Of a stretch of 63,491 nucleotides of DNA, positions 1 through 16,565 are shown piece by piece. Within the stretch, counting starts at the first letter, position 1, and each line of letters opens with the position of its first letter. A program made the position numbers and the translations under genes. A model generated the notes under the pieces. That model did not search any database. It had not been told where the DNA came from and saw only the letters and a list, made by a program, of their open reading frames with translations. Source of the DNA: Hydrogenimonas sp. (GTDB lineage: Bacteria > Campylobacterota > Campylobacteria > Campylobacterales > Hydrogenimonadaceae); contig NZ_JAOZPV010000003.1 of NCBI RefSeq assembly GCF_029932565.1, positions 1-63,491 of the forward strand, given 5' to 3'.

Positions 1-113
1 CAGATGCCGTTGCCGGCCACCTTGATCCGCACCTCGCCGGGTCCCGGTTCGGGCAGGGGAACGTCGACCAGCCGTGGCGGCTTTCCCCACTCGAAGAGAC
101 GATAGGCTTTCAT
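1..113 (-). CDS. Zn-dependent alcohol dehydrogenase (MDR family), 5' fragment truncated by the window edge
   Basis: Manual translation from ATG at 113: MKAYRLFEWGKPPRLVDVPLPEPGPGEVRIKVAGNGI(C), matching the MDR N-terminal P.P.PGEV.IKV...G.C pattern; purine-rich RBS upstream. Confidence 0.8.
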   Translation of the reverse strand, partial: MKAYRLFEWGKPPRLVDVPLPEPGPGEVRIKVAGNGI

Positions 114-141
114 CCTTTTTCCTTTCAGACTGTAACCCGAT

Positions 142-169
142 GTTACGCCAAAAGATGGTTTTGCGTAAC
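142..169. terminator. Imperfect hairpin between gdhA and the ADH gene (possible terminator or stabiliser)
   Basis: gttacgc-caaaa...tttt-gcgtaac inverted repeat; no strong U-tract. Confidence 0.3.
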
Positions 170-190
170 GTCAGTTTGTAAAAAACAGGG

Positions 191-1585
191 TCAGATACCT
201 TCGGCGATCATCGCATCGGCGACCCGTTTGAAGCCGGCGATGTTGGCACCGTCGACGTAGTTGCCCGTCACGCCGTATTCGTCGGCCGTCTGTGCGACAT
301 TGGTGCAGATATGGACCATGATATCCTTGAGCTCCGCATCGACCTTCTCGAAACTCCACCGCATCATCTGGGCGTTCTGGCTCATCTCCAGCGCGCTGAC
401 CGCCACGCCACCGGCATTGGCAGCTTTGGCGGGTCCGAAACAGATGCCGCTTTCAAGGAAATAGTGGATCGCATCGGGCGTGGATGGCATATTGGCCCCC
501 TCCGTGACGCTCACGCAGCCGTTTTTGACCAGTGCTTTGGCGTCGGCCAGCGACAACTCGTTCTGTGTCGCGCACGGGAAGGCGGCGTAACAGGGGATAT
601 GCCAGGCGGCATGGCCATCTTTCGGATACTCCGAAACCGGAATGTACTGCGATTCCGGGTGTTTCCCGGCGTACTCTTCAAGCGATACTCTCTTCTCGAA
701 CTTCAGCTCCTTCAGAAGGTCGAGATCGACCCCCCGCGGGTCGTAGACCGTCCCTTTCGAATCGGAACAGGTCACGGGCACGGCACCCAGAGCATAGAGC
801 TTTTCAATGGCGTGCAGCGCCACGTTGCCCGAACCGCTCACGGTACAGACTTTGCCTTCGAGCGGTTTCTTTCCTTCGATTTCGAGCATCTTTTCGGTGA
901 AATAGACGACACCGTACCCCGTCGCCTCCGGACGCATCAGCGAACCCCCGAAAAAGAAAGGCTTCCCGGTCAATACCCCTTCGTAACTGGAGGTGATCTT
1001 CTTGTATTGGCCGAAGAGGTAGCCGATCTCTCTGGCACCCACGCCGATATCGCCGGCAGGTACATCGATACGCGGACCGATGTATTTGTGCAGCTCCTGC
1101 ATATAGGCGGAGCAAAAATTCATCACCTCGAAATCTGTCTTTCCTTTCGGATCGAAGTCACTGCCCCCTTTGCCGCCGCCGATGGGCAGACCCGTCAGAG
1201 CGTTCTTCAGAATCTGCTCGAACCCCAGAAACTTCAGGACCCCTTCGTTGACGGAGGGATGAAACCGAAGCCCCCCTTTGTAGGGTCCCAGGGCGTTGTT
1301 GAACTGCACACGATAGCCCGTGTTGACCTGTATCTGATTGTTGCGGTCCATCCATTCCACTTTGAATTTGAAAATCCGGTCCGGCTTGACGAGCCGTTGC
1401 ACGATGGCGTTCTCTTTGTATTTCGGATCGGAGAGGTAGAGTGGTGCGATGGAGAGGAGTACCTCTTCCATTGCCTGAAAGAAGACATCGTCCTCTCTGC
1501 AGTTCGGATTTCTCAAACTTTTGATGTACTTTCTCGCGCGTTCCAGATCTTTTTGATCGACGCTGGCCAGTCTGTTTTGTTTCAT
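191..1585 (-). CDS. gdhA: NADP-specific glutamate dehydrogenase
   Basis: Motifs GPYKGGLRFHP, GGGKGG, DVPAGDIGVG, RPEATGYG, SGSGNVA, GANIAGF; start taken as MKQNRL (ATG 1585) because the longer ORF overlaps the upstream gene. Confidence 0.95.
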   Translation of the reverse strand: MKQNRLASVDQKDLERARKYIKSLRNPNCREDDVFFQAMEEVLLSIAPLYLSDPKYKENAIVQRLVKPDRIFKFKVEWMDRNNQIQVNTGYRVQFNNALGPYKGGLRFHPSVNEGVLKFLGFEQILKNALTGLPIGGGKGGSDFDPKGKTDFEVMNFCSAYMQELHKYIGPRIDVPAGDIGVGAREIGYLFGQYKKITSSYEGVLTGKPFFFGGSLMRPEATGYGVVYFTEKMLEIEGKKPLEGKVCTVSGSGNVALHAIEKLYALGAVPVTCSDSKGTVYDPRGVDLDLLKELKFEKRVSLEEYAGKHPESQYIPVSEYPKDGHAAWHIPCYAAFPCATQNELSLADAKALVKNGCVSVTEGANMPSTPDAIHYFLESGICFGPAKAANAGGVAVSALEMSQNAQMMRWSFEKVDAELKDIMVHICTNVAQTADEYGVTGNYVDGANIAGFKRVADAMIAEGI

Positions 1586-1604
1586 GTGTTTCCTTTGATT
1601 GATG

Positions 1605-3308
1605 TTATAGGCTGCAGGCTGTTGCGACCCTGTATTCCGACACTTTTCTCCCTTTCGTATCGACAATGTGAACGGCACACGCCAGGCACGGGTCGAACGA
1701 ATGCACGACTCGCAAGACTTCCAGAGGTTTCGTCGGATCGGCAAGATGTATACCTATCAGCGACTCTTCGTACGGGCCTCTGATCCCTTTCGCATCTTTG
1801 GGCGACGCATTCCATGTCGTCGGCACGACGGCCTGGTAGTTACACACTCTGCTCTCTTCGATTTTCACGAAGTGCGCCAGAACACCTCGCGGCACTTCAT
1901 GGATACCCCGCCCCTGCGCCGATTTTGGGAGTGTCTCAAACTCATATTTCGTCCAGGTCTCCTCATCGTAGTATTTGATGTTTTCGATCAGATCGCTGCA
2001 GAAGTCGAAAATGGTTTCACAGCAGATTTTCGCTTCGACAGCACGGGCGGCATTTCGGCCGATCGTGGAAGAGAAATCGATAAGTTCCATACCCGTCTCT
2101 TCCATGAAAGCCTCCACCGCAGGCTTGATGATAGTCGAATCTTTCAGATAACCGATGATCATACGTGCAGCGGGGCCCACTTCCATCGGTTCATTCTTGT
2201 AGCGTGGGGCCTTGACCCAGCTGTATTTTCCTTCCGTTTTGAGCGATCCGTCGTCGTTAAGGTCGGTATAGAACGGTACCGTCGATTCGTCGTAGGGCGA
2301 TGTCGGTCCATTCTCTTCATACCATGAACGTGACGCTTCTTCCGTGATATGATCGTCGTCGAAGGATTCGATATGTTCGAAATCGTGTCGATAAATGACA
2401 CCATTTTCAAACAGTACCGTACCGCTTGCGAGTCGGTATCCGCCGGCCGCCATGAAATTGCCGCTGCCGCGTCCGACTCCCTCTTTCATCTCCTGGTTGT
2501 ACGCTTCGACGAGCAGTTGCATATCGGGGATATAGGCGCGCTCGATGAAATCACGTGTATCCTTCATGATGAACATGTAGTCGTTCAACCGCTGGGGGTT
2601 GAGCATATCGGCCACACTGGTGACACCTCCGACGACCAGATTTTGCGGATGGGGTGTTTTGCCTGCGAAAATGGCGACCGCTTTGCTCAAAACCCTCTGG
2701 ACACGCAGCGCTTCGAAATAGTGGTTTATGAGAACGAGATTCTCCTCCGGAGTCAACCGGTAGGCGTCGTGTCCCCAGTATCCATTGGCGAAAAGCCCCA
2801 GCCGTCCCGCCTTGACAAAAGATGCAAGTTTCTCTTTCAATGACGAAAAATGACCGACCGACGATCGATAGGGATAGGAGTGATAGCGTTTCGCGACCTC
2901 CTCCGCTTTGGCGACATCCGCTTCGAGTGCACTGACGATATCGACATAGTCGAGTGAATGAAGATGGTAGAAATGGATGATGTGATCCTGCACGAAAAGT
3001 GAGAGCGTGACAAGATTGCGTATGATTTCGGCATTGGGCGGCGGTACGATGCCGTAGGCATCTTCAACCGCCGCAATCGATGCACGATAATGGACATTGG
3101 TGCAGACACCGCAGATACGCTGGGCAATCAGCCCCACATCTCTCGGGTCGCGTCCTTTCAGAATCACTTCGATGCCGCGGAAAAGCTGTCCCGATGCCCA
3201 GGCCTCCCTGACTACGTTTTCCTCGTCGATTTCGATTTCGATACGCAAGTGTCCCTCGATGCGGGTGATCGGATCGATCACGATTTTTTTGAGACGTCCG
3301 TTACTCAT
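1605..3308 (-). CDS. [NiFe]-hydrogenase large subunit, group 1-like (567 aa)
   Basis: DPITRIEGH, L1 QRICGVC, HFYHLH, KYSWVKAPRY, EVPRG, L2 DPCLACAVH followed by a cleavable C-terminal extension; start MSNGRL overlaps the upstream stop. Confidence 0.95.
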   Translation of the reverse strand: MSNGRLKKIVIDPITRIEGHLRIEIEIDEENVVREAWASGQLFRGIEVILKGRDPRDVGLIAQRICGVCTNVHYRASIAAVEDAYGIVPPPNAEIIRNLVTLSLFVQDHIIHFYHLHSLDYVDIVSALEADVAKAEEVAKRYHSYPYRSSVGHFSSLKEKLASFVKAGRLGLFANGYWGHDAYRLTPEENLVLINHYFEALRVQRVLSKAVAIFAGKTPHPQNLVVGGVTSVADMLNPQRLNDYMFIMKDTRDFIERAYIPDMQLLVEAYNQEMKEGVGRGSGNFMAAGGYRLASGTVLFENGVIYRHDFEHIESFDDDHITEEASRSWYEENGPTSPYDESTVPFYTDLNDDGSLKTEGKYSWVKAPRYKNEPMEVGPAARMIIGYLKDSTIIKPAVEAFMEETGMELIDFSSTIGRNAARAVEAKICCETIFDFCSDLIENIKYYDEETWTKYEFETLPKSAQGRGIHEVPRGVLAHFVKIEESRVCNYQAVVPTTWNASPKDAKGIRGPYEESLIGIHLADPTKPLEVLRVVHSFDPCLACAVHIVDTKGRKVSEYRVATACSL

Positions 3309-5736
3309 TTTCGGCCTCCTCTTCCAGCGGTCGTTCGTTGGCGTAAAGATCAAAGGCAATTTTCCCTTCGCCGCATGCGATACAACCGTGCCCAGCCTGA
3401 ACCGGCCAGCTCGTCCCTTCGTTGAATTTCACCTGCGGGCAGTTGAGGTCGGCGTAGGGACCTTTGCACCCCATTTTGAAGAGGCACCATCCCTGTTTCG
3501 CCCCCTCGTCACCCCACTCCAGAACAAACTCCTCGAGATCGTAATGGCCGCGACGTTCACAGTTGTCGTGGATACGGTAGCTGTAGGCCCATTTCGGACG
3601 TCTCTTCTCGTCGAGTTCCGGGATCTCGTCGAACATGATGTAATAGATCAGTGTCCCGACGACATTGGCGGGATTGACGGGACAACCCGGCAGATGGATG
3701 ACATCGTCGCGTTCCAACGCTTCCGATACGCCGACGGCACCCGTCGGGTTGGGTTCGGCCGCGACGACCCCACCGTCGAGGGCACAGGTGCCGACCGCCA
3801 GAACCGCTGCGGCACTCCCGGCCACTCTTTTCAGAAGTTCAATCCCGGTTTCTCCTTTCGGCCCGATTCGCAGATATTTTCCTTCCATTCCCAGCGGAAC
3901 CGCCCCTTCGACGATCAGGACGAAGCCCTCTTTCTCGTTTTCAACAATCGAATCGAGTGTACGTTCGCTCTGATCGCCCGCCGCCGCCATCAGAAGATCG
4001 TGATAGTCGAGTGAGATATAGTTGAGAATCAGGTCGGTGATCTTTGGCTGCGCCGTTTTGATGAATGCCGTGGAATTGCCGGTACAGTCGGCCAGTTCCA
4101 GCCAGACGATCGGAATTTTGTTGAGCTGTCTGATCGCCTGATCGACCAGCTCTTCATGCCGGGGTGACAGACGCATACTCGCCGTGATCATCGAAACCCA
4201 GCGATTGTATTCACGGTTCATATCGAGCGCTTTGATCGCCTCTTCGAGATTCTCCGTCGTGATCCTGTTTTTGGGATGGAGACGGTTGAACTTTTCGATC
4301 CGTTTCCTGATCTTTTCCATTTCGGCCGCCTCGCGGGCCGCCTCTTTCTCTGCCCGGATTCGCGCCGCCTCCTCGGGATCGACCGGCGTCTTCGCGATGA
4401 GATCGACGATATCCTGTTTGCAGCGCCCACAGACCCTCCCCGCCTCGGTCAACCCTTTGAGTTCCGCGAAACGGGTGACGGCGTTCTCTTTGATGAGTTC
4501 GACGAGGTCGAATTCGTACGTACCGGTACAGCTGCAGACGAGCCGTCCCCTCTCGCCCACCTTCCGGCTATGGTAGAAGAAAGTGGGATCGACCGGCTCG
4601 TCCTTCTCCATGATCCGTTTGAGCTCCATGACATCGACATTCGAGTTGAGTCCAATGAAGCGCCGCAGCCGGTCGTCGTTGACGATATACTGATCGACCC
4701 GTTTCTCTTTTCTCGATTCGATGATGATATCTTCGTTTTCCGGATCACGGGGATCGTATTTCGGCGACGAAACGTCGGTAAAGAGAAAGGCACCCACTTT
4801 CAGCCCGTCGATGGCCGGCTCGTGTTCAAATCGTTCCGATTCGATCCCCAGGATGTTGGCGACCGCCACATCCGCTTCCTGTGTGCTTTCCCTGACACGA
4901 CCCGCGACAAAACCGTCGCTTCGCAGCTGGGCCGCCTCCCCTACCGCATAGATGTCAGGATCGGAAGTCCGCATCGTCTCGTCGACAAGGATGCCCCTGT
5001 CAACCTCCAGAACACCTCTTGCAAAATCGACGTTGGGGGTGATACCGACACCGAAAATGAGGAAGGGATCGTCGATGGTATGATGCTTCGTCACGATCGT
5101 CGCAAGGCGGTTTCCCTCGATTTTTCTCTCGACGATTTCGTCGTGATAGGAGATCGTCACACGCGGATCGGCTTCAAAAATCTCCGATATCCACGCCACC
5201 GCCATCGGATTGAGTGCACGATCGTAGAGATGCGCTCCGCGTGAAAGAAGAAACATCCTCTTCGGATCGGGCATTTTGACCAGGGTGTCGAGAAGTTCCA
5301 GGCCGATGGGACCGACGCCGGAGATGATGACGTTACGCCCCTTGATGCCTTTCGCGATTTTGAAACTGTCATCGGCACTCCGAAAGGTCGCAGCGTTTTC
5401 GATCCCACCGATGTCGAAAAGCGTTTTCGGCTTCGAGCCGGTCGCGATGATCAGTTTGTCGTATCCGAAGAGGGCATTTTCGGTCACCACCTTTTTCTCT
5501 TCCGGCTCGATGGAGAGAACGCGTTGATTCAGCTCCACGTTTACATCGGGGTGGAGTTCGAGCAGAATATCTTCCAACGCCGCGCTTCCGTCGACCAGCC
5601 GGCAGAGATGAATCCGGTCGTAGGGCGGATACCTCTCGGCAGAGAGAATCACTACCTCGTGCCCCTTTTCCCGCTCCATGATGGTGTTCGCGGCGTGTGC
5701 CCCCGCGATACCCCCACCAATGATGACGATACGCAT
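3301..5736 (-). CDS. Fusion: FAD/NAD(P)H oxidoreductase (NirB/rubredoxin-reductase-like) + BFD-like [2Fe-2S] domain + [NiFe]-hydrogenase small subunit (811 aa)
   Basis: MRIVIIGGGIAG, ATGS, SGVGPIGLE, TSDPDIYAVGE; VCSC...CGRC; WLELADCTGNS, GTCA, LPGCP, HDNCERR, WCLFKMGCKGP, GHGCIAC; RBS AAGGAG before ATG 5736. Confidence 0.9.
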   Translation of the reverse strand: MRIVIIGGGIAGAHAANTIMEREKGHEVVILSAERYPPYDRIHLCRLVDGSAALEDILLELHPDVNVELNQRVLSIEPEEKKVVTENALFGYDKLIIATGSKPKTLFDIGGIENAATFRSADDSFKIAKGIKGRNVIISGVGPIGLELLDTLVKMPDPKRMFLLSRGAHLYDRALNPMAVAWISEIFEADPRVTISYHDEIVERKIEGNRLATIVTKHHTIDDPFLIFGVGITPNVDFARGVLEVDRGILVDETMRTSDPDIYAVGEAAQLRSDGFVAGRVRESTQEADVAVANILGIESERFEHEPAIDGLKVGAFLFTDVSSPKYDPRDPENEDIIIESRKEKRVDQYIVNDDRLRRFIGLNSNVDVMELKRIMEKDEPVDPTFFYHSRKVGERGRLVCSCTGTYEFDLVELIKENAVTRFAELKGLTEAGRVCGRCKQDIVDLIAKTPVDPEEAARIRAEKEAAREAAEMEKIRKRIEKFNRLHPKNRITTENLEEAIKALDMNREYNRWVSMITASMRLSPRHEELVDQAIRQLNKIPIVWLELADCTGNSTAFIKTAQPKITDLILNYISLDYHDLLMAAAGDQSERTLDSIVENEKEGFVLIVEGAVPLGMEGKYLRIGPKGETGIELLKRVAGSAAAVLAVGTCALDGGVVAAEPNPTGAVGVSEALERDDVIHLPGCPVNPANVVGTLIYYIMFDEIPELDEKRRPKWAYSYRIHDNCERRGHYDLEEFVLEWGDEGAKQGWCLFKMGCKGPYADLNCPQVKFNEGTSWPVQAGHGCIACGEGKIAFDLYANERPLEEEAENE

Positions 5737-5737
5737 C

Positions 5738-6202
5738 TCAATCTCCTTTCGGGCCGGCAGGCTCACCTTTTCGGGCCGCTCTCTTTTCCGCTTTTTCGGC
5801 CTTTTTCTTCTCGGCATAACGTTCCCGGCTCTCTCGGGCAACCGTCTGCCAAACAAACCACTCATCGTTGACGTTCTCGGCCTTCGATGCGGGATTCGGC
5901 TTCTCGGAGGAGTGGGTCAATGCCTCGTCCGCTTTTGGACATGCCCGCACACACTCCCCACAATAGATACAGAGCCAGGGGTTGTATCGGTACTCCTTGT
6001 GCCCGTCATCGTGCTGGTAGAAGACGATCGCCTTTGGAGGGCACGCCTTCTCACACCGGTCACAGAAGATGCAATGCTCCACATCGTAGAGAATGAGTCC
6101 CCGATAGTCGGAAGGCACCTGCACATCCCCAACGAAAGGGTATTTCACCGTATGGGGTGGTTTGAACATATTGCTCCAGGCATTGGCCAGTGATCTAAAC
6201 AT
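5738..6202 (-). CDS. echF: Ech hydrogenase 2x[4Fe-4S] subunit F (NuoI-like)
   Basis: CIFCDRCEKACP and CIYCGECVRACP; T.KYPF, YRG motifs; AAGGAG RBS favours the MFRSL start at 6202 over 6223. Confidence 0.88.
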   Translation of the reverse strand: MFRSLANAWSNMFKPPHTVKYPFVGDVQVPSDYRGLILYDVEHCIFCDRCEKACPPKAIVFYQHDDGHKEYRYNPWLCIYCGECVRACPKADEALTHSSEKPNPASKAENVNDEWFVWQTVARESRERYAEKKKAEKAEKRAARKGEPAGPKGD

Positions 6203-6253
6203 CCAAATCTCCTTCTCTGCCATTCGATAAAAGCGAACCGCAACGACCCTTTC

Positions 6254-6288
6254 TCAATTCTTCACTCTTCACTTTCCACTCTTCACGC
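6254..6288 (+). repeat. Degenerate 7-bp tandem repeat in the echE-echF spacer
   Basis: tcaattc ttcactc ttcactt tccactc ttcacgc. Confidence 0.7.
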
Positions 6289-6290
6289 AT

Positions 6291-7376
6291 CTATTTTGCC
6301 GTACACGACATACAGGGATCGAACGATGCCAGTATCGCCGGTGCATCGGCGTATTCGCTCCCTTTGAAAATTTCGACCATCGCCGGTATGCCGGAAAAAG
6401 TCGGAGTTTTGATACGTACACGGTCCAGGAAATTCTTGCCGCTGCCACGCACCAGATACATCAGTTCCCCCCGCGGTGCCTCGAGTCGGACGATCGCCTC
6501 ACCTTTGGGTTTGCCTTTGATCTTCAGCAGATGCTCTCCCTCCGGCAGGTTCTGCACGATGTTTTTGCACATCTCGATGCTGTTGAGAATCTCATAGAGC
6601 CGCACCATATTGCGGGCGTGGATATCGCCTCCCTTCTCGAGAACCACTTCGAAACCGACCTCTTCGTAAGGCAGATCGGAACTCTCCAGACGTACGTCCG
6701 TCCGCAACCCGGCAGCGCGGGCGAGCGGCCCGAGGGTATTGTAGATGCACGCCTCCTCGTAGGTCAGCATCCCGACACCTCTGTATTTCAGTGAAAGGGA
6801 CCAGTTTTTCGAAAACTCTTCCAGCAGTCGTTCGATTTTCGGTTTCAGCGCATCCAGTGTCGCCACGACCTCTTTCGCCGTCTCGGGCGAAATATCGCGA
6901 TGGACACCACCGATGGCGATATAGTCAAACTGCACCCGGTTGCCGCTGATCGCCTCCTGCAGGTCCATAACCGGCTCCCGTGCCGCCATCACTTCCATGA
7001 ACATCGCTTCGAAACCGGCATTTTCCGCTGTATGGGAGAGGCAGAGCATATGGGAGTGGATGCGATCGAGTTCCACCATCAGCATCCGCAGATAGTCGAT
7101 TCGCCGGGTGCTTTCGAACTCCAGCATCTTTTCGACGGCGAGCGTAAATGAAAGCGAATGGGTGATGGCGCACAGACCGCATACCCGGGCAACCACGTAG
7201 GGGAGTTTTTTCCATTCGAACTGGGTCACACACGCCCGCTCTATTCCGCGATGGACGAATCCGACATCGGCTCCGACCTCGACAATTTTTTCGTTATGGG
7301 TCTTGAATTGAAAACGGACCGGCTCCAACAGAGAGATATGCTGGGAACCCAACGGTATATTGATCACTTTTTTCAC
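6291..7376 (-). CDS. echE: Ech hydrogenase large (catalytic) subunit E, group 4
   Basis: G.QH..L.EP, GFVHRGIE, ARVCGLC, EAPRGE, RIKTPT, DPCMSCTAK; 361 aa, no C-terminal extension. Confidence 0.93.
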   Translation of the reverse strand: MKKVINIPLGSQHISLLEPVRFQFKTHNEKIVEVGADVGFVHRGIERACVTQFEWKKLPYVVARVCGLCAITHSLSFTLAVEKMLEFESTRRIDYLRMLMVELDRIHSHMLCLSHTAENAGFEAMFMEVMAAREPVMDLQEAISGNRVQFDYIAIGGVHRDISPETAKEVVATLDALKPKIERLLEEFSKNWSLSLKYRGVGMLTYEEACIYNTLGPLARAAGLRTDVRLESSDLPYEEVGFEVVLEKGGDIHARNMVRLYEILNSIEMCKNIVQNLPEGEHLLKIKGKPKGEAIVRLEAPRGELMYLVRGSGKNFLDRVRIKTPTFSGIPAMVEIFKGSEYADAPAILASFDPCMSCTAK

Positions 7377-7735
7377 ACTTCACACCCTCCCAATCCCATC
7401 GTTTTCAGAGGGGTTTTAAGCGAATCGTCACTCAGGTAGAGCTTTCCTTCGATGCCTTCGATTGTCAAACCGAACATATCCACCACCTCACGCTCACCCA
7501 TGATGGCCGAGGGAATCAGTTTCACGATAGAGGGTACCTCTGTTTCGTAATCGGTAATGCAGTAAAACACAACCGTTTCATCCTTTGCACCATATTTCGC
7601 AAAGATCCACTGCAGCTCGATCTTCCCATCGTCCAGGTCTATCCCGTTGAGAGTCAGAAAGTGCCACTCGTACCGATCGTAGAACTCTTCGATCGTTTTG
7701 ACCACTCTTTCGAGAGTCGTTTCAATCTTTTTCAT
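7373..7735 (-). CDS. echD: Ech hydrogenase subunit D (NuoC-like)
   Basis: VPSI..LIPSA..GEREVVDMFG motif; lies between echC and echE with 4-bp overlaps. Confidence 0.85.
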   Translation of the reverse strand: MKKIETTLERVVKTIEEFYDRYEWHFLTLNGIDLDDGKIELQWIFAKYGAKDETVVFYCITDYETEVPSIVKLIPSAIMGEREVVDMFGLTIEGIEGKLYLSDDSLKTPLKTMGLGGCEV

Positions 7736-8256
7736 TTTTCCTCCCCAATACGTTTCGCCATTGTCAACCGGCTGATCTTTTTTCCGATCCTCTTTATCCC
7801 ACCGAAGAGCCGGAATGGTTTTTCGATCGCTTTGTTTTTCTTCTCAAGTATCGACAACGCCTGCACGATCCCGTCGATAATGAGCTGTGGCGAGGCGGCA
7901 CACCCGGGTACATAAACATCCACCGGGATGTACCGATCGATGCCGTCTTCAACATTGTACATACCACGAAAGACCCCGCCGGTCGAGGTACAGGCTCCGA
8001 CAGCGACGACCACTTTGGGTTCGGGAATCTGACTGTAGAGTTCCACAAGTCGCTCTCTGGAGTGAAACGTTACGGGACCCGTCACCAGAAAAATGTCCGT
8101 CTGCTTCGGATTTCCCGTATTGACGATGCCGAAACGCTCCAGATCGAATCGGGGACTCAGCGCTGCGAGTATCTCTATGTCACAACCGTTGCAGCTGCCG
8201 GCATTGTAATGGAGAATCCAGGGTGATTTTTTCCTGAACTGTGCCAACCATTTCAT
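7732..8256 (-). CDS. echC: Ech hydrogenase small subunit C (NuoB-like)
   Basis: KSPW, GSCNGCDIE, VAVGAC, VDVYVPGC; start MKWLAQ (ATG 8256) overlaps the echB stop. Confidence 0.92.
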   Translation of the reverse strand: MKWLAQFRKKSPWILHYNAGSCNGCDIEILAALSPRFDLERFGIVNTGNPKQTDIFLVTGPVTFHSRERLVELYSQIPEPKVVVAVGACTSTGGVFRGMYNVEDGIDRYIPVDVYVPGCAASPQLIIDGIVQALSILEKKNKAIEKPFRLFGGIKRIGKKISRLTMAKRIGEEK

Positions 8257-9074
8257 GTGAGCATCCAGACGATGTTGATGCCTGCCAGCAGCAGTGCCAG
8301 CAGGTAGCTGATTTTGACCATATCGGCTGCACGGACTCGCGCGGTGGCATTGTCGACGAGGTTCACCAGGATGAACGTACCGATGACCAGCAGTGCCCCG
8401 AGCCAATAGTCCGCTCCTCCAAAGAGGAATACGAAACTGTAGATGAAGATATACTCCAAAAAACGTGCCATATAGAGAAACTCGAAGAAGAAACCGCTGT
8501 ACTCCACTTCCACGCCGCCGACGATCTCCTGATGCCCTTCGACCACATCGAACGGCGACTTTTTCACTTTGATGGGAAGAATGACGAGCAGCGCCAGAAA
8601 GAGCAGTGGCATCTGCGACAGATAGCCGCTGTGGTGCAGAATGTCACCGATATAGAAACTACCCGCATACAGATAAAACCCGACCGTCACAAGCAGCAAA
8701 ACCGGTTCGTAGGCCACCAGCGCAAGGAGTTCGCGGTTCGCTCCGATCTGGGAAAAAACCGAACGGACACTGTAACCGGCGATAACCAGCACGATCAGCG
8801 CAAAAAGATGCAGAAAGACAATATAGAGGAGATTCCAGCCAAAAAAGATGGCACCCACCGTAATCCATAGAACCAGAAAATGTACGACACCCAGCAATGC
8901 ATGGGCGGAATGGATGACGAGCGTGCGTTTATCCATCAACTTGAACATGTCGTAAAAAGGCTGCAGCAGCGGAGGCCCCTGACGTCGCTGCATACGGGCA
9001 CGCAACACCCTTTCCCCGCCATAGACCAGCCCGCCGAGCACCGGTGCCATCACGATCCAGAACCAGGTTGTCAT
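8253..9074 (-). CDS. echB: Ech hydrogenase membrane subunit B (NuoH-like)
   Basis: ARMQRRQGPPLLQPFYD, KSPFD..EGHQEIVGG...EYSG; multiple TM helices. Confidence 0.92.
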   Translation of the reverse strand: MTTWFWIVMAPVLGGLVYGGERVLRARMQRRQGPPLLQPFYDMFKLMDKRTLVIHSAHALLGVVHFLVLWITVGAIFFGWNLLYIVFLHLFALIVLVIAGYSVRSVFSQIGANRELLALVAYEPVLLLVTVGFYLYAGSFYIGDILHHSGYLSQMPLLFLALLVILPIKVKKSPFDVVEGHQEIVGGVEVEYSGFFFEFLYMARFLEYIFIYSFVFLFGGADYWLGALLVIGTFILVNLVDNATARVRAADMVKISYLLALLLAGINIVWMLT

Positions 9075-10837
9075 GAGAGGGCTCCTGTCAACGCGACCGA
9101 CACGAAAAGAAGTGTGAAGAACGTATAGATAGCCACCCGTATTTTCGGAGTCGGTTCGTAGTAATAGAGTGCTGCATCAAACGACTCCTTCTCGCCGCAG
9201 TGATAGCATTTCACACGATCAAAACGATCCATCCAACGATACGCCAGTGGCGCCAGAACGAGCATGGCGATGGGCACGAAAAAGAGTGTAAGATCGGCCA
9301 CTTGCTGAACGGCCGCCAGCCGGATTGTCGTGAAGACGACCAGAACGGCGAGAATGGCAAGCGGCAGGAGAAACCCGGACGGCATCGCTTCATGCCCGAG
9401 ACCGACGATGTCCGAAGGCCGCGAGAGGATGGCCGCCGTCACTTTGAAATAGAGAAGCACCAGCAGTGTGCTGCCGATCAGAATAGAGAGAAGCAGCAAG
9501 AAAAGCCCCGGATGGTCCGGCAGCATGTGAGAAACCTCTTCGATGGCAAACAGCTTGACGATAAAAAGACCAAAAGGCGGCAATGTCAGCGAGACGAATC
9601 CAAACAGAATGAAACGGGCACTTTTCGGTGCCGTTTCAATCAATCCTTTCATATCCTCGATATCTTTGAGATGGTGCAGTTTTTCGACCACACCCGCCGT
9701 CATGAAGAGCATCGCTTTGGAGAGCGCGTGAAAGAATATGAGCACCATCGTCAATATCGATGTCTCGGGCGTACCAATGGCTGCCAGCGCCATCATAAGT
9801 CCCAACAGTGCGATCGTGGAGTAGCCGAGGATCTCCTTGAAAACGGTACGCGAAAGGGCCAGATAGGATGCGGCGACAAATACGAAGCCGCCGAATGTCG
9901 AGAGCAGCAGACCCACACCCGTGCCTCCCAGAGCCGGAGAGAGTTTCAGAATGAGCCACGGGGCAATTTTCACCATTGTCGCCGAGTGGAGGATGGCACT
10001 GACGGGTGTCGGTGCCACCATGGCACCAAGCAGCCAGCCGTCAAAGGGGATCGACGCTCCTTTGACCAGCGCCGCCATACTTACCAGCGAGACACAGAGC
10101 AGAAGGGTGCCGCCGACACTCCCGGTCAATGCATCGAACCGTGTGGTGTCGTAACCGTAAATGGCGCAGAGCGTTCCGAGCAGAATGACGACACCTCCGA
10201 TCTGATTCATCCAGAGTGCCTTGAGTGCGTTCTTCTGTGCCGTTTCGTCGCCTCTGAAACCGATGAGAAGATAGGAAGCCAGTGTCGTCATCTCGAAAAG
10301 GAAGAAGAAGAGCAGCAGTGAATTGCTTACCACGACAGCGTTCATAACCGAAAGAAAGAGAAGCAGATAGGCGATGAAAAGCCGCTTCTTCTCTTCGGAG
10401 ATCTCTTCGTAGCTCATATACCGCACGGCGTAAACGACGATGATTCCGCCAACAATATTGATGATGAGAAACATGAAAGTCGACAGAGCATCGACGACGA
10501 CTTCCGCACCCCCCTCTTCGGGAAGAACCGATTCTGCCCAGCCATAGAGCAGCAGCTGTATGACCGCCAGCAGTGTGATGATCCGCCGATCGAACCGTCG
10601 CCCCTGCCACAGGAAATAGAGAAGCAGCAACAGATCCGCAATTACGATGAATAGTTCGAGCCAATGGGGAAAATGGAAGGTCAGAACAGCACTGCCGAAG
10701 TAAAGCTTCAACGCCGTCGCAGACAGCAAAACGACGGTTGTCGCAAGAAGTATATATTGCATTTTTTCGGATCTGAACCATCTCAGGAGCAGTGTCGCAA
10801 CAATCGGTAACAGAATAAGTAACATAGCACCTGGCAT
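9071..10837 (-). CDS. echA: Ech hydrogenase antiporter-like membrane subunit A (NuoL-like)
   Basis: WLLGAMVAPTPVSAILHSATMVK, ILGYSTI, FHALSKAMLFM; many TM helices; AAGGAG RBS favours start 10837 (ORF track gives 10852). Confidence 0.92.
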   Translation of the reverse strand: MPGAMLLILLPIVATLLLRWFRSEKMQYILLATTVVLLSATALKLYFGSAVLTFHFPHWLELFIVIADLLLLLYFLWQGRRFDRRIITLLAVIQLLLYGWAESVLPEEGGAEVVVDALSTFMFLIINIVGGIIVVYAVRYMSYEEISEEKKRLFIAYLLLFLSVMNAVVVSNSLLLFFFLFEMTTLASYLLIGFRGDETAQKNALKALWMNQIGGVVILLGTLCAIYGYDTTRFDALTGSVGGTLLLCVSLVSMAALVKGASIPFDGWLLGAMVAPTPVSAILHSATMVKIAPWLILKLSPALGGTGVGLLLSTFGGFVFVAASYLALSRTVFKEILGYSTIALLGLMMALAAIGTPETSILTMVLIFFHALSKAMLFMTAGVVEKLHHLKDIEDMKGLIETAPKSARFILFGFVSLTLPPFGLFIVKLFAIEEVSHMLPDHPGLFLLLLSILIGSTLLVLLYFKVTAAILSRPSDIVGLGHEAMPSGFLLPLAILAVLVVFTTIRLAAVQQVADLTLFFVPIAMLVLAPLAYRWMDRFDRVKCYHCGEKESFDAALYYYEPTPKIRVAIYTFFTLLFVSVALTGALS

Positions 10838-10937
10838 GACAACTCCTTGCATGCGCCCATCTGAGAATCATCTTAATGATCCAGCAGCCAGGGCCGCTCC
10901 AAAACTGCAACGGTATTCAGAGTAGCCTGATGTATTT

Positions 10938-10946
10938 AGTGTAACA
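10938..10946 (-). promoter_or_regulatory. Candidate extended -10 element for the ech operon
   Basis: Minus strand TGtTACACT downstream of a very AT-rich stretch (10950-11060). Confidence 0.35.
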
Positions 10947-11066
10947 CAATATTCTTATAGACGTTTGATTAGATGCGGAGTTTTGTATATATTTGGTTAA
11001 TTATGATCATATTTTATTCATCGTATAATGTTATATTATTACAAATTTCATATCCGAATTGAAGTT

Positions 11067-13153
<2,087 letters not shown>

Positions 13154-15070
13154 CTATACCAGTTTGAGATAGCTCACACCCAACGGGGGCAGCTGGAGAG
13201 TGAGCGAATGTTTGCGTCCGTGACATTCGATATCTTCCGTCTCTATCGGTTCCGGATTGGTGATATCCCACCCCTCGTAATGTTTGTACTGGGAATTGAA
13301 GATCTCTTTCCATCGACCCGGTATCGGCATACCGACCCGGTAGTTGTGATAGACGGTATCGGCAAAGTTGCAGACTACGAGAATCGTCTCCTCTTCCCTG
13401 TCGCTTTTTCGAAGAAACGCGAGCACATTGTGCTGATAGTCGGTATCGTCGATCCACTCGAAACCGGCATGCTTCTCGTCGTAGAGATGAAGCGCCCGTT
13501 CGGTTTTGTAGAGTGCATTGAGATCGCTCACCAATCGCTGGATACCGCGGTGGCACGGATTTTCCAGGAGGTGCCAGTCGAGACTCTGCTCGTAGTTCCA
13601 TTCGGACCACTGTGCGAACTCCCCTCCCATGAAAAGGAGTTTTTTGCCGGGATGCGCCGTCATATAGGCGAAGAGTGCACGCAGGTTGGCATATTTCTGG
13701 TTGTCGTCTCCCGGCATCTTGCGAATGAGAGAACCCTTCATATGCACCACTTCGTCGTGGCTCAGCGGCAGAACGAAGTTTTCGTCGAAAGCGTACCACA
13801 TGCTGAAGGTGATCTGGTGGTGGTGGTGCTGGCGGTAGATGGGATCGAGCTTGAAATATTTGAGTGTATCGTGCATCCATCCCATATTCCATTTGAATCC
13901 AAAACCGAGCCCACCGACATAGACCGGTCTTGTCACCATCGGGTAGGCCGTCGACTCTTCCGCCACCATGACGATGTCCTCATACTCTCCGTAGACCGTT
14001 TCGTTGAGCTGTTTCAAAAACGCAATGGCATCGAGATTTTCATTGCCCCCGAACTCGTTGGGAATCCATTCACCCTCTTCTCTCGCATAGTCGAGATAGA
14101 GCATCGACGCCACCGCGTCAACACGGATACCGTCGATATGGTATTTTTCAAGCCAGTACATCGCACTCGAAATCAGAAAAGCACGTACTTCGTTCCGTCC
14201 ATAGTTGAATATGGCACTCTTCCATTCCGGATGGTACCCGAGACGCGGGTCGACATGCTCGTAGAGACAGGTACCGTCGAAATTGATAAGGCCATGACCA
14301 TCGGTGACAAAATGCGATGGAACCCAGTCCATGATGACGCCGATATCGTGCTGATGCAGAATATCGACGAACTGCATGAATTCCTGCGGCGTGCCATACC
14401 GTGCCGTCGGGGCGAAATAGCCGGTTACCTGGTATCCCCATGAGCCTTCGAAAGGGTGTTCGGTAATCGGCATGATTTCGACATGGGTGTAGTTCATATC
14501 GGTGAGATAACGGGCGAGTTCGTGCGCCGATTCGATATAGGTCAGCGATCGGTTCCCCTCTTCCACAATTTTTCGCCACGACCCCAGATGAACCTCGTAA
14601 ACGGAGATGGGTTTGTCGTGGGCATTGCGTTCTTTCCGCATCGCCATCCAGGCATCGTCGTTCCATTCGTAATCGTCGATCTCCCAGACGCGTGAAGCGG
14701 AATGCGGTGGTTTTTCGGCATATTTGGCATACGGATCCGCTTTTTCGAATGTGCGTCCATCCATTTTCGAGACGATATGATATTTGTAGGTCTGCCCTAC
14801 ATCCACATCTTCGATAAACCCTTCCCAGATACCCGATTCGTCTTCACGAAGTTTCAAGGGATGCGCCGCAGCATCGTAGCCGTTGAAATCACCGATGACA
14901 CTCACCATCGCGGCATTGGGCGCCCAGACAGCGAAATAGACTCCGTCCATCTTATCTCTTTGCATCCTGTGGGAGCCGAGTTTGTCGTAGAGCTTGACAT
15001 GTGTTCCCTCTTTGAAAAGATAGATATCCATATCACTGAATCGGGTGACGTCATAGTGTATTGCGTTCAT
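13154..15070 (-). CDS. glgB: 1,4-alpha-glucan branching enzyme (GH13)
   Basis: FAVWAPNA, YEVHLGSW, SWGYQ, DWVPSHF, RVDAVASM, AEEST, LSHDEVVH. Confidence 0.97.
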   Translation of the reverse strand: MNAIHYDVTRFSDMDIYLFKEGTHVKLYDKLGSHRMQRDKMDGVYFAVWAPNAAMVSVIGDFNGYDAAAHPLKLREDESGIWEGFIEDVDVGQTYKYHIVSKMDGRTFEKADPYAKYAEKPPHSASRVWEIDDYEWNDDAWMAMRKERNAHDKPISVYEVHLGSWRKIVEEGNRSLTYIESAHELARYLTDMNYTHVEIMPITEHPFEGSWGYQVTGYFAPTARYGTPQEFMQFVDILHQHDIGVIMDWVPSHFVTDGHGLINFDGTCLYEHVDPRLGYHPEWKSAIFNYGRNEVRAFLISSAMYWLEKYHIDGIRVDAVASMLYLDYAREEGEWIPNEFGGNENLDAIAFLKQLNETVYGEYEDIVMVAEESTAYPMVTRPVYVGGLGFGFKWNMGWMHDTLKYFKLDPIYRQHHHHQITFSMWYAFDENFVLPLSHDEVVHMKGSLIRKMPGDDNQKYANLRALFAYMTAHPGKKLLFMGGEFAQWSEWNYEQSLDWHLLENPCHRGIQRLVSDLNALYKTERALHLYDEKHAGFEWIDDTDYQHNVLAFLRKSDREEETILVVCNFADTVYHNYRVGMPIPGRWKEIFNSQYKHYEGWDITNPEPIETEDIECHGRKHSLTLQLPPLGVSYLKLV

Positions 15071-15077
15071 AATAGCC

Positions 15078-16565
15078 TCACTTGTAATTTTTCACGCGTC
15101 TGCTGTAGAGCGTGTGGTAATAGAGATCCTCATATTTTTCCGCCGCACTTTCCCAGTCGAATCTTGCCTGCATCGCCGTTCTCTGCATAATCGCGAAGGC
15201 ATCTTTTTCGTAGCGGTAGGTGTCTGCCGCCCATTTGACTGTATGATAGAGTGCGTCGTTGGTCGCCCATTCGAATTTGAAGCCGTTGCCCGTTTTCGTG
15301 GCAGGATCGTAGTTTTGAATCGTATCGTCCAGACCGCCGGTCGCCCGGACGATCGGCAATGTGCCGTAACGCAGCGAATAGATCTGATTCAGCCCGCAGG
15401 GTTCGAACAGCGAAGGCATCAAAAAGAGATCGCTGCCCGCTTCGATGACATGGGCAAGCTCGTTGGAGTAGCCGATGTAGCAGGCGAAACGGTCGGGATA
15501 CTTTCCTGCGATATCGCTGAAGAACCCTTCGGCCCATTTTTCTCCCGTTCCGAGCATGACGATCTGAACATTCAGATGCAAGAGCCCCTCGATCGCGCCG
15601 GCGATCAAACCGATCCCTTTCTGTTCCGCAAAACGTCCGACGAAGCCGATAAGGGGTACATCGTCCCACACCGGCAGGTTGAATCGATCCTGCATGTCCG
15701 CTTTACAGACCGCTTTGCCGCTCATATCGTCCAGATCGTACCGTCTGGCTATAAAGGGATCGATGGCAGGACTCCACTCGTCATAATCGACACCGTTGAG
15801 AATGCCGTAGAGTTTGTAACTGTGCGCTCCGATATGCCCTTCGAGTCCGAAGCCGAATTCCGGAGTCTGGATTTCATGCGCATATTTGCGGCTCACCGTC
15901 GTCACGGCATCGGCATGTGCGATACCCCCCTTCAGAATATTCACCCCGTCCATCGATTCGAGTTCATGGGGATTGAAATGTTCCCAACCGGCTTCCATCA
16001 CATCCATGACACCTTTGAAAAAGATCCCCTGATGCTGAAGATTGTGAATGGTCAATACCGATGCGCTCTCTTTGAAAAAGTCGTCGAACGCATAGCGTGA
16101 GTTTTTCAGAACCGGCTGCGCCGCCGTATGCCAGTCGTGGGCATGGATGATATCGGGTTTGAATCCGATTTTTTTGCATAGTTGGAATGCCGCTTTGCTC
16201 AGGAAAACGAACCGGTTGTCGTTGTCGGAATAGCTGAAACCCTGTTCATCGGCATAGAGACCCGATCTGCCATAAAACTGCTCATAGTCGATGAAATAGA
16301 TCGGAACGTCACTGTTTGGCAGCGTATCCTTGTAGACACCGGCCCAGAGTTCCCCCATCGCACCCATCGGCACACCGAGCGGCCCGACGATATGTTCGAG
16401 TTTGTCTTTGTCGATACTGTAATAGCGTGGCATTACGACAATGACGTTGTGTCCAAGTGATGCCAGCGCTTTGGGAAGAGCACCGGCCACATCTGCCAAT
16501 CCGCCGGTTTTTGCAAACGGTACAACTTCCGATGCGGTAAAAAGAATATTCAGCGCTTTATTCAT
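15078..16565 (-). CDS. glgA: Glycogen synthase (copy 1)
   Basis: KTGGLADV, HAHDWHT, TIHNL.HQG, GILNGVD, MPSLFEPCGLNQ, TGGL.DT; AAGGAG RBS before MNKAL. Confidence 0.95.
   Translation of the reverse strand: MNKALNILFTASEVVPFAKTGGLADVAGALPKALASLGHNVIVVMPRYYSIDKDKLEHIVGPLGVPMGAMGELWAGVYKDTLPNSDVPIYFIDYEQFYGRSGLYADEQGFSYSDNDNRFVFLSKAAFQLCKKIGFKPDIIHAHDWHTAAQPVLKNSRYAFDDFFKESASVLTIHNLQHQGIFFKGVMDVMEAGWEHFNPHELESMDGVNILKGGIAHADAVTTVSRKYAHEIQTPEFGFGLEGHIGAHSYKLYGILNGVDYDEWSPAIDPFIARRYDLDDMSGKAVCKADMQDRFNLPVWDDVPLIGFVGRFAEQKGIGLIAGAIEGLLHLNVQIVMLGTGEKWAEGFFSDIAGKYPDRFACYIGYSNELAHVIEAGSDLFLMPSLFEPCGLNQIYSLRYGTLPIVRATGGLDDTIQNYDPATKTGNGFKFEWATNDALYHTVKWAADTYRYEKDAFAIMQRTAMQARFDWESAAEKYEDLYYHTLYSRRVKNYK

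Follow-up and report, generated by a model that had tools for sequence, protein, structure and literature searches.

The nickel-iron hydrogenases of group 1b are listed in HydDB as respiratory uptake enzymes (PMC5037454). From the genome of Thiomicrospira crunogena XCL-2 (now Hydrogenovibrio crunogenus), a hydrogenase of particular design was described, namely Tcr2037/2038, whose small subunit bears a pyridine nucleotide-disulphide oxidoreductase domain with sites for flavin adenine dinucleotide (FAD) and reduced nicotinamide adenine dinucleotide (NADH), is devoid of a twin-arginine leader and was placed in the cytoplasm; direct transfer between H2 and NAD(H), possibly as a reductant sink, was proposed (Scott 2006, PMC1635747). 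A relative of this enzyme is reported here from a window of 63,491 nucleotides, i.e., the whole stretch of DNA analysed, at the start of contig NZ_JAOZPV010000003.1 of Hydrogenimonas sp. (assembly GCF_029932565.1; Campylobacterota), where two adjacent genes on the reverse strand encode a flavoprotein fused to a hydrogenase small subunit (hereafter the fusion) and a large subunit. Judging from their sequences, these two genes are a group 1b-derived nickel-iron hydrogenase, the chemistry of which is quite probably cytoplasmic and linked to the phosphorylated nucleotide NADP(H), whichever the direction.

The XCL-2 small subunit was later given as 813 amino acids (aa) long and the enzyme as a group 1b member with cytochrome b absent and His108 missing, the same subunit being reported in five other species (Hansen and Perner 2016, PMC4744846); the carriers listed there include Sulfurimonas autotrophica, Sulfuricurvum kujiense, Sulfurovum sp. 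AR and Arcobacter nitrofigilis. The XCL-2 hydrogenase is named “cluster II” in PMC4744846 and “hydrogenase gene cluster I” in PMC6501319. In strain SP-41, H2 use goes with a second, membrane-bound cluster (Gonnella 2019, PMC6501319), and the large subunit of the fusion type is transcribed, at a higher level when H2 is the sole donor (PMC6501319). Neither XCL-2 (PMC1635747) nor S. autotrophica (Han and Perner 2015) grows on H2; a single group 1 enzyme is attributed to the latter (Wang 2021), which would be the fusion hydrogenase. Multiple group I copies have been treated as affinity variants (Han and Perner 2015; Wang 2021; PMC12403661), and the fusion goes unmentioned in the accessible parts of PMC11406935, PMC12727194 and PMC12628806.

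A preceding sequence-only reading of the locus had claimed novelty for both the architecture and the inferred transfer from H2 to NAD(P). A new architecture was ruled out and the claim falls, since the design and the H2-NAD(H) idea are already present in PMC1635747, PMC4744846 and PMC6501319. This kind of fusion, already described from genomes in 2006, is apparently uncharacterised, and the remark in the same reading that no enzyme of such architecture had been characterised agrees with the literature searched, which left out most subscription journals and in which neither a purified example, nor a claim of NADP use, nor a link to an energy-converting hydrogenase (Ech) was found. What is added here is a relic signal of twin-arginine translocation (Tat), the prediction of NADP(H) use and the linkage to Ech.

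Organisation of the fused gene

The hydrogenase and its elements are arranged as follows.

1605..3308, reverse strand: large subunit, 567 aa, with group 1b-type L1 (AQRICGVCTNVH) and L2 (SFDPCLACAVH) motifs, a C-terminal extension and Gln107
3301..5736, reverse strand: fused gene, 811 aa, i.e., FAD/NAD(P)H module, BFD [2Fe-2S] domain, relic signal region and group 1 hydrogenase small subunit
4567..5736, reverse strand: flavoprotein module of NirB/ferredoxin-reductase type, residues 1-390, with FAD motif GGGIAG and nucleotide motif GVGPIGLE
5236..5244, reverse strand: S165-R166-G167, where NAD-specific relatives carry Glu, aligned to Glu164-Ala165 of FdR9
4420..4536, reverse strand: ligands of a BFD-like [2Fe-2S] cluster, C401, C403, C436 and C439 (C401-S-C403...C436-G-R-C439)
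4117..4314, reverse strand: remnant, inside the protein, of the Tat signal region that small-subunit precursors carry, residues ~475-540, twin Arg lost and hydrophobic core now polar
3373..4116, reverse strand: small-subunit core, residues 541-788
3304..3372, reverse strand: polar tail of 23 residues, no membrane anchor

The frame of the fused gene is open over 811 aa with zero internal stops, as had been claimed. PF07992 covers residues 1-291, PF01058 residues 551-698 and PF14720 residues 718-792, the BFD motif lying between the first and the second, while a NirB model matches residues 3-452; the expected FAD and NAD(P)H module over residues ~1-390 is thereby borne out. PF04324 is recorded for the fusion protein, above cut-off in one homolog and unlisted for the window protein at 1e-8.

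Conservation was followed over 240 fusion sequences, i.e., the best 120 of 712 matches together with 120 listed by a further search with more remote members, ranging down to ~53% identity with the window protein. The BFD-like CSC...CGRC motif foreseen in the sequence-only reading is upheld, C401, C403, C436 and C439 each being invariant (240/240). In the small-subunit core, the ligand positions are C551-x-G-N554, C651 and C685 for the proximal cluster, C766, C785 and C788 for the medial one, and H723, C726, C751 and C757 for the distal one. The 15 fusion ligand positions checked are invariant in 240/240, save one at 239/240. The proximal CxGN motif was rejected as a special or broken feature, since it is common to 16/22 ordinary Tat-bearing HydA controls (22 stand-alone proteins from hand-picked loci, two group 2-like subunits being left out). 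In a predicted model of the fusion folded alone, the predicted local distance difference test score (pLDDT) is ~90 over residues 1-390 and intermediate in the BFD domain. Cys45 is invariant as well (240/240); it was considered as a redox-active cysteine, but its position differs from what we take to be that of the NADH-peroxidase Cys42. Of note, residue 284 (about 4885-4887, reverse strand) is Ser in the window protein and Cys in 239/240 sequences.

Reality and distribution of the fusion

The fusion is real. An artefact of assembly or frameshift was ruled out by its full-length occurrence in 26/401 Campylobacterota genomes (source genome counted; one more copy is cut by a contig end) and by single contigs from two studies, one of which may be the source sample, that bridge the junction by covering 3386-4980 and 3568-4992 gaplessly and with no indels. 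The best 120 of the 712 matches are all 797-836 aa long with 98-100% query cover, one being the window's own protein. All full-length fusions belong to a single 50%-identity cluster, 1.84 billion representatives having been searched. Carriers are all within four families, and none was seen in the two largest sampled families (276 genomes); they include named Sulfurimonas and Thiomicrolovo isolates, and the nearest named homolog among the matches listed is from Hydrogenimonas urashimensis (81%). The sequencing runs holding most of the window are vent and marine sediment metagenomes.

Some fusion homologs (P0032, P0309) are annotated as hyaluronate lyase and many as quinone-reactive hydrogenase small subunit, misleading public annotations that hide the family in surveys. 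Besides, the group 1 small subunits P0141, P0143, P0146, P0162, P0165 and P0176, of 550-808 aa, have long C-terminal extensions without Pfam match and are possibly other unrecognised fusions.

Large subunit and hydrogenase class

The group-1-like large subunit announced as the next gene is indeed there (1605-3308, reverse strand, 567 aa) and is of group 1b type, an assignment from the L1/L2 motifs and a tree without Desulfovibrio 1b reference rather than a HydDB classification. The two genes overlap by 8 bases. The large subunit scores 446-525 bits to group 1 models vs 73-96 to sulfhydrogenase models, and the PDB ranking agrees. The four Ni cysteines show no variation among the partner large subunits (27/27), and Gln107 replaces the first L3 His, with Gln in 27/27 partners vs His in 23/23 ordinary large subunits. 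Partner large subunits form one clade, with 100 by the Shimodaira-Hasegawa-like approximate likelihood ratio test (27 rows) and 100/100 in a careful tree of 28 rows, and this clade, Campylobacterota HydB and a single Sulfobacillus sequence are grouped together, apart from the 1c/1d references (100/100). The small-subunit domains of fusions likewise make up one clade, so that the fusion hydrogenase stands as a separate long-branch clade in both subunits. Its sister HydB lineage is an open fork in the tree (HydB as one clade, approximately unbiased test, p 0.057).

Of the 29 other loci, 27 have the large subunit directly after the fusion, one of them (L004, 10947-12638) with an in-frame stop that cuts it into open reading frames (ORFs) of 359 and 195 aa. 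A fusion without partner was considered for the two remaining loci and rejected, both genomes keeping the large subunit elsewhere: at L043 (G074:C14, 249000-267600) it lies ~9 kb from the fusion, with Fic and AbiEii genes between, and at L052 (G232:C63) it is on a different contig, EchE being frameshifted. In none of 30 loci (one duplicate dropped) does a cytochrome b gene follow the partner large subunit; in the 7/30 loci where cytochrome b is present, it sits each time behind a separate ordinary large subunit. The absence of a cytochrome b gene, noted earlier for the locus, extends to the whole window.

A relic Tat signal and the likely location

Ordinary Campylobacterota HydA precursors begin aligning at fusion residue about 456-495, with the fusion segment LEEAI...MNREYNRWVSMITASMRL opposite ...SRRDFMKWASA.TAMLML of the stand-alone precursors. 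Since the linker faces the precursor signal sequence in this alignment, it is, as judged from sequence, a decayed Tat signal. The twin Arg is found there in 0/149 and 0/240 fusions (overlapping sets) vs 22/22 stand-alone controls, and the mean peak hydropathy of the core is 0.21 in fusions vs 1.25 in controls; none of the 240 fusions has an N-terminal RRxF twin-arginine leader either. The small subunit is thus complete, as had been said, but precursor homology begins near residue 475-495 and not at ~540. Similarly, the lack of a membrane anchor holds whereas the abrupt end after GHGCIAC does not, as 23 polar residues follow; C-terminal tails are of 17-34 aa with a maximum hydropathy of -0.08 in 149/149 fusions vs 56-67 aa and 1.21-2.13 in the 22 controls. 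With neither export signal nor membrane anchor on its small subunit, the enzyme likely stays in the cytoplasm, a location for which these features support the earlier claim.

Flavin module and nucleotide preference

Foldseek places the front half of the fusion next to putidaredoxin and ferredoxin reductases (E 1e-31), the closest folds also including rubredoxin reductases and NADH oxidases; a tungsten aldehyde oxidoreductase has a similar NAD-linked FAD subunit (8c0z_E). Outside the hydrogenases, the nearest relatives of the front half occur in nitrate and nitrite reductases as FAD/BFD modules; in the tree, the module sits on a very long branch, so that no particular donor stands out.

The nucleotide-binding motif is invariant in 240/240 fusions, no acidic residue occurs at position 165 (0/240) and Arg166 is present throughout (240/240). 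BphA4 mutants E175X/T176R/Q177G, which we take to prefer NADPH, score 66.8-67.7 bits against the fusion module and the wild type 60.9 bits. In FdR9, repulsion of the 2'-phosphate by Glu164 was put forward as the basis of NAD selection (PMC7397466), and removal of the equivalent Glu of MDHAR increased NADP affinity 16-fold (PMC5031999). The lack of a NAD-selecting acid at 165, together with the constant Arg166, predicts a preference for NADP(H); the pyridine-nucleotide link put forward beforehand gains support from this sequence and fold evidence.

Association with an Ech-type hydrogenase

Directly upstream of the fusion lies a second hydrogenase, the gene names of which were assigned here from domain content and order.

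5738..10852, reverse strand: cluster of six genes for an Ech-type energy-converting hydrogenase, with 1 base between its end and the fusion ATG
9071-10852, reverse strand: echA
8253-9074, reverse strand: echB
7732-8256, reverse strand: echC
7373-7735, reverse strand: echD
6291-7376, reverse strand: echE
5738-6223, reverse strand: echF

Ech and the fusion are likely co-transcribed in the window. Within the four carrier families, an EchE orthologue occurs in 10/80 genomes, 9/10 of which have the fusion, i.e., EchE is found in 9/26 fusion carriers vs 1/54 others (Fisher p 1e-4, overstated as kin are not independent). The nine genomes with both span six genera and two families. Ech is adjacent to and co-oriented with the fusion in the window, in 6/9 genomes with both and in two named records, in two gene orders, either ahead of the fusion or behind the large subunit; where measured (four loci), the gaps amount to 1-18 bases, and one locus has an inserted gene. 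The hydrogenase clusters of Thiomicrolovo are drawn in a figure of PMC12403661, where the adjacency may already be pictured.

Ahead of ech, at 11483-32062, comes a 20-kb island of glycogen and glycolysis genes, namely two phosphoglucose isomerases, a branching enzyme, two glycogen synthases, a ROK kinase, GH57, a nucleotidyltransferase-phosphomutase fusion, PFK, pyruvate kinase, a phosphorylase-like gene and phosphoglucomutase. Between pgi and echA, an ORF of 143 aa (11067-11498, reverse strand) has a hydrophobic N-terminus and no Pfam/NCBIfam match.

Proposed role and alternatives

Tentatively, and with a little less than even confidence, the fusion hydrogenase is predicted to reduce NADP+ with H2 and so to supply NADPH for biosynthesis. 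Electrons would pass from the NiFe site via the three small-subunit clusters to the BFD [2Fe-2S] cluster, then to FAD and NADP+, the reaction being reversible and cytoplasmic. Where the two are co-transcribed, Ech would give reduced ferredoxin from H2 and the fusion enzyme NADPH, reduced ferredoxin and NADPH being the two reductants of carbon fixation by the reductive tricarboxylic acid cycle. The failure of XCL-2 and S. autotrophica to grow on H2 fits this proposal because an enzyme without quinone link would not support growth on H2 alone. Location, cofactors, NADP preference, direction and role are all inferred for the fusion enzyme. A more ambitious version, doubtful when taken as a whole, would make the fusion and the six-gene Ech a single co-transcribed module that couples, through H2, the ferredoxin pool to the NADPH pool across the membrane potential, i.e., a two-hydrogenase stand-in for Rnf/Nfn providing both reductants for carbon fixation in sulfur- and hydrogen-oxidising Campylobacterota; the enzyme would then be a distinct NADP-specific subgroup, born from a nitrite-reductase-type diaphorase fused onto a whole periplasmic precursor whose Tat signal decayed in place.

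Several points weigh against NADPH supply from H2. Hydrogenase activity was seen in no fraction of XCL-2 (PMC4744846), that of SP-41 was in membranes only with none soluble (PMC6501319), and extracts of S. autotrophica displayed no H2 uptake (Han and Perner 2015, citing Takai 2005); such assays ought to reveal an active soluble enzyme, unless it was unmade, unmatured or O2-damaged. The soluble H2:NAD(P)+ oxidoreductase claimed in the sequence-only reading is supported in its anatomy, location and nucleotide link, as far as sequence goes, but the published assays of fractions from carriers were negative for soluble H2 uptake. The small-subunit part is unplaced in the predicted model (pLDDT <50 for 719-811, predicted template modelling score 0.57). 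The predicted NADP preference rests on a single loop, and the GxGxxG motif is of the NAD type in 210/240 members. This Ech is missing from 17/26 fusion genomes, and therefore the fusion does not need it. Finally, HypD was not found in the source assembly (96% complete). It may lie in an assembly gap, which is plausible because a short contig of the assembly (C94, 3.5 kb), which carries over 1-3536 a hydrogenase maturation protease and a HydE-like gene beside the first part of hypF, ends inside hypF.

The rival that survives best, though rather unlikely, is an electron valve oxidising NAD(P)H to H2 during oxidant-free glycogen breakdown, with Ech making H2 from ferredoxin in an energy-conserving way, which amounts to the proposal of Scott 2006 (PMC1635747) with NADPH in place of NADH. 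It draws on the glycogen/glycolysis island directly upstream of ech, on related modules of nitrate and nitrite reductases, which oxidise NAD(P)H, and on the carriers XCL-2 and S. autotrophica not growing on H2. Glycogen synthase occurs in 17/26 fusion genomes vs 18/54 others and in 8/9 with fusion and Ech, but it is absent from 9/26 carriers, and within one family the link is not significant (12/18 vs 6/15, p 0.17); no glycogen gene was seen among the neighbours scanned at other loci, although many of these neighbours matched nothing at the limits used. Besides, H2 release from NADPH would halt near 0.5-25 micromolar H2 (assumed textbook potentials), and expression in SP-41 goes up on H2 (PMC6501319).

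Less probable still is a flavin module that leaves the NAD(P) pool unserved and feeds O2, a carrier of rubredoxin or ferredoxin type or a membrane partner such as EchF, e.g., for oxygen protection. The closest folds, i.e., ferredoxin, putidaredoxin and rubredoxin reductases and NADH oxidases, agree with such acceptors, as does echF adjoining the fusion start in the window; in H2-using Hydrogenovibrio, moreover, the activity is membrane-associated and anchoring by partner proteins was suggested (PMC6501319). However, the nucleotide motif and Arg166, invariant in 240/240, would be expected only with a bound dinucleotide, the role of carrier is already filled by the built-in BFD cluster, and no rubredoxin or peroxidase gene recurs among nameable neighbours.

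A decaying, dead hydrogenase that lost signal, anchor and cluster sites, an alternative raised in PMC4744846, is very improbable: XCL-2 and S. autotrophica showed no activity, the proximal cluster has Asn for one Cys, the large subunit is split in one locus and displaced in two, and HypD was not found in the source assembly, but the ligands are invariant over 240 sequences down to ~53% identity, CxGN is shared with ordinary HydA (16/22), the listed strain variants are mostly silent (9/11 in the fusion and 13/15 in the large subunit, from 40 listed rows of 105), both genomes with a displaced large subunit retain that gene elsewhere, and maturation protease and hypF occur on the contig ending inside hypF, with HypD possibly in the gap. 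Taken against these three alternatives, NADPH supply from H2 is favoured, if only narrowly short of an even chance.

The fusion type would explain why the hydrogenase-bearing XCL-2 and S. autotrophica fail to grow on H2. Because named Sulfurimonas and Thiomicrolovo isolates carry the fusion, the survey reading of extra “group I” copies as respiratory affinity variants is likely wrong for some Sulfurimonas-type copies. The architecture has been in print for ~20 years, and the NADP prediction and Ech linkage make an old puzzle testable; NADPH regeneration would, moreover, gain a compact catalyst in a two-gene H2:NADP+ enzyme of a vent lineage.

Further features of the surroundings

One more gene follows the hydrogenase.

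191..1585, reverse strand: NADP-specific glutamate dehydrogenase (PRK09414 over cut-off), 19 bases past the large subunit

A functional link to this downstream gene is unsupported, as no glutamate dehydrogenase homolog clusters with the fusion in the other loci compared. A promoter and terminator scan gave scores near shuffle level. In two genomes (L057 in G243, L060 in G159), the fusion operon has close to it a gene for a NifA-like sigma-54 activator, which may point to a connection with nitrogen fixation in these genomes. Neither another group 1 hydrogenase nor ordinary hydABC was found in the source assembly. Its contig C7 bears an operon for complex I (about 5768-15859) that includes a NuoF-type (PF01512) subunit, which would be NADH's own respiratory outlet; to our knowledge, most Campylobacterota are without the NADH-binding NuoE/F pair.

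Comparison with known systems

The closest system is the XCL-2 type, the likeness to Tcr2038 being set by its published description and the sequence comparison by the S. autotrophica protein, which shares 429/814 identities (53%) with the window fusion end to end; no Hydrogenovibrio-named protein is among the 240 matches listed. In both types, the small subunit of ~810 aa (811 in the window, 813 in XCL-2) includes a pyridine nucleotide-disulfide oxidoreductase domain and is devoid of a Tat leader, cytochrome b is lacking, and the large subunit, of group 1b, is without the first His of the His-rich motif. The XCL-2-type genes are part of a hyp operon, whereas those of the window follow the Ech cluster; the accessible text of the XCL-2 papers names NADH and leaves BFD cluster, relic signal and Ech unmentioned.

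With the respiratory group 1b HydABC (Wolinella/Helicobacter type), the large subunits group together and the small-subunit core and signal region are homologous, but the fusion is without twin Arg, C-terminal anchor and cytochrome b and adds the FAD/[2Fe-2S] module. The group 3b/3d enzymes (sulfhydrogenase, HoxFUYH) share the predicted net reaction from H2 to NAD(P)+ in the cytoplasm; their large-subunit clade is unrelated to that of the fusion partner, and they rely on separate diaphorase subunits (PMC1635747) where the fusion has a NirB-type module joined to the small subunit, separate diaphorase genes being absent from the window operon, flanked by ech and glutamate dehydrogenase. Finally, while the NirB/NasB type is distinguished by the siroheme or molybdopterin domain that the fusion does without, its diaphorase module and 8c0z_E of Aromatoleum have the same fold and the same order, i.e., FAD module, then BFD, and several modules fused to nitrate reductases also carry Arg and lack an acid in the nucleotide loop.

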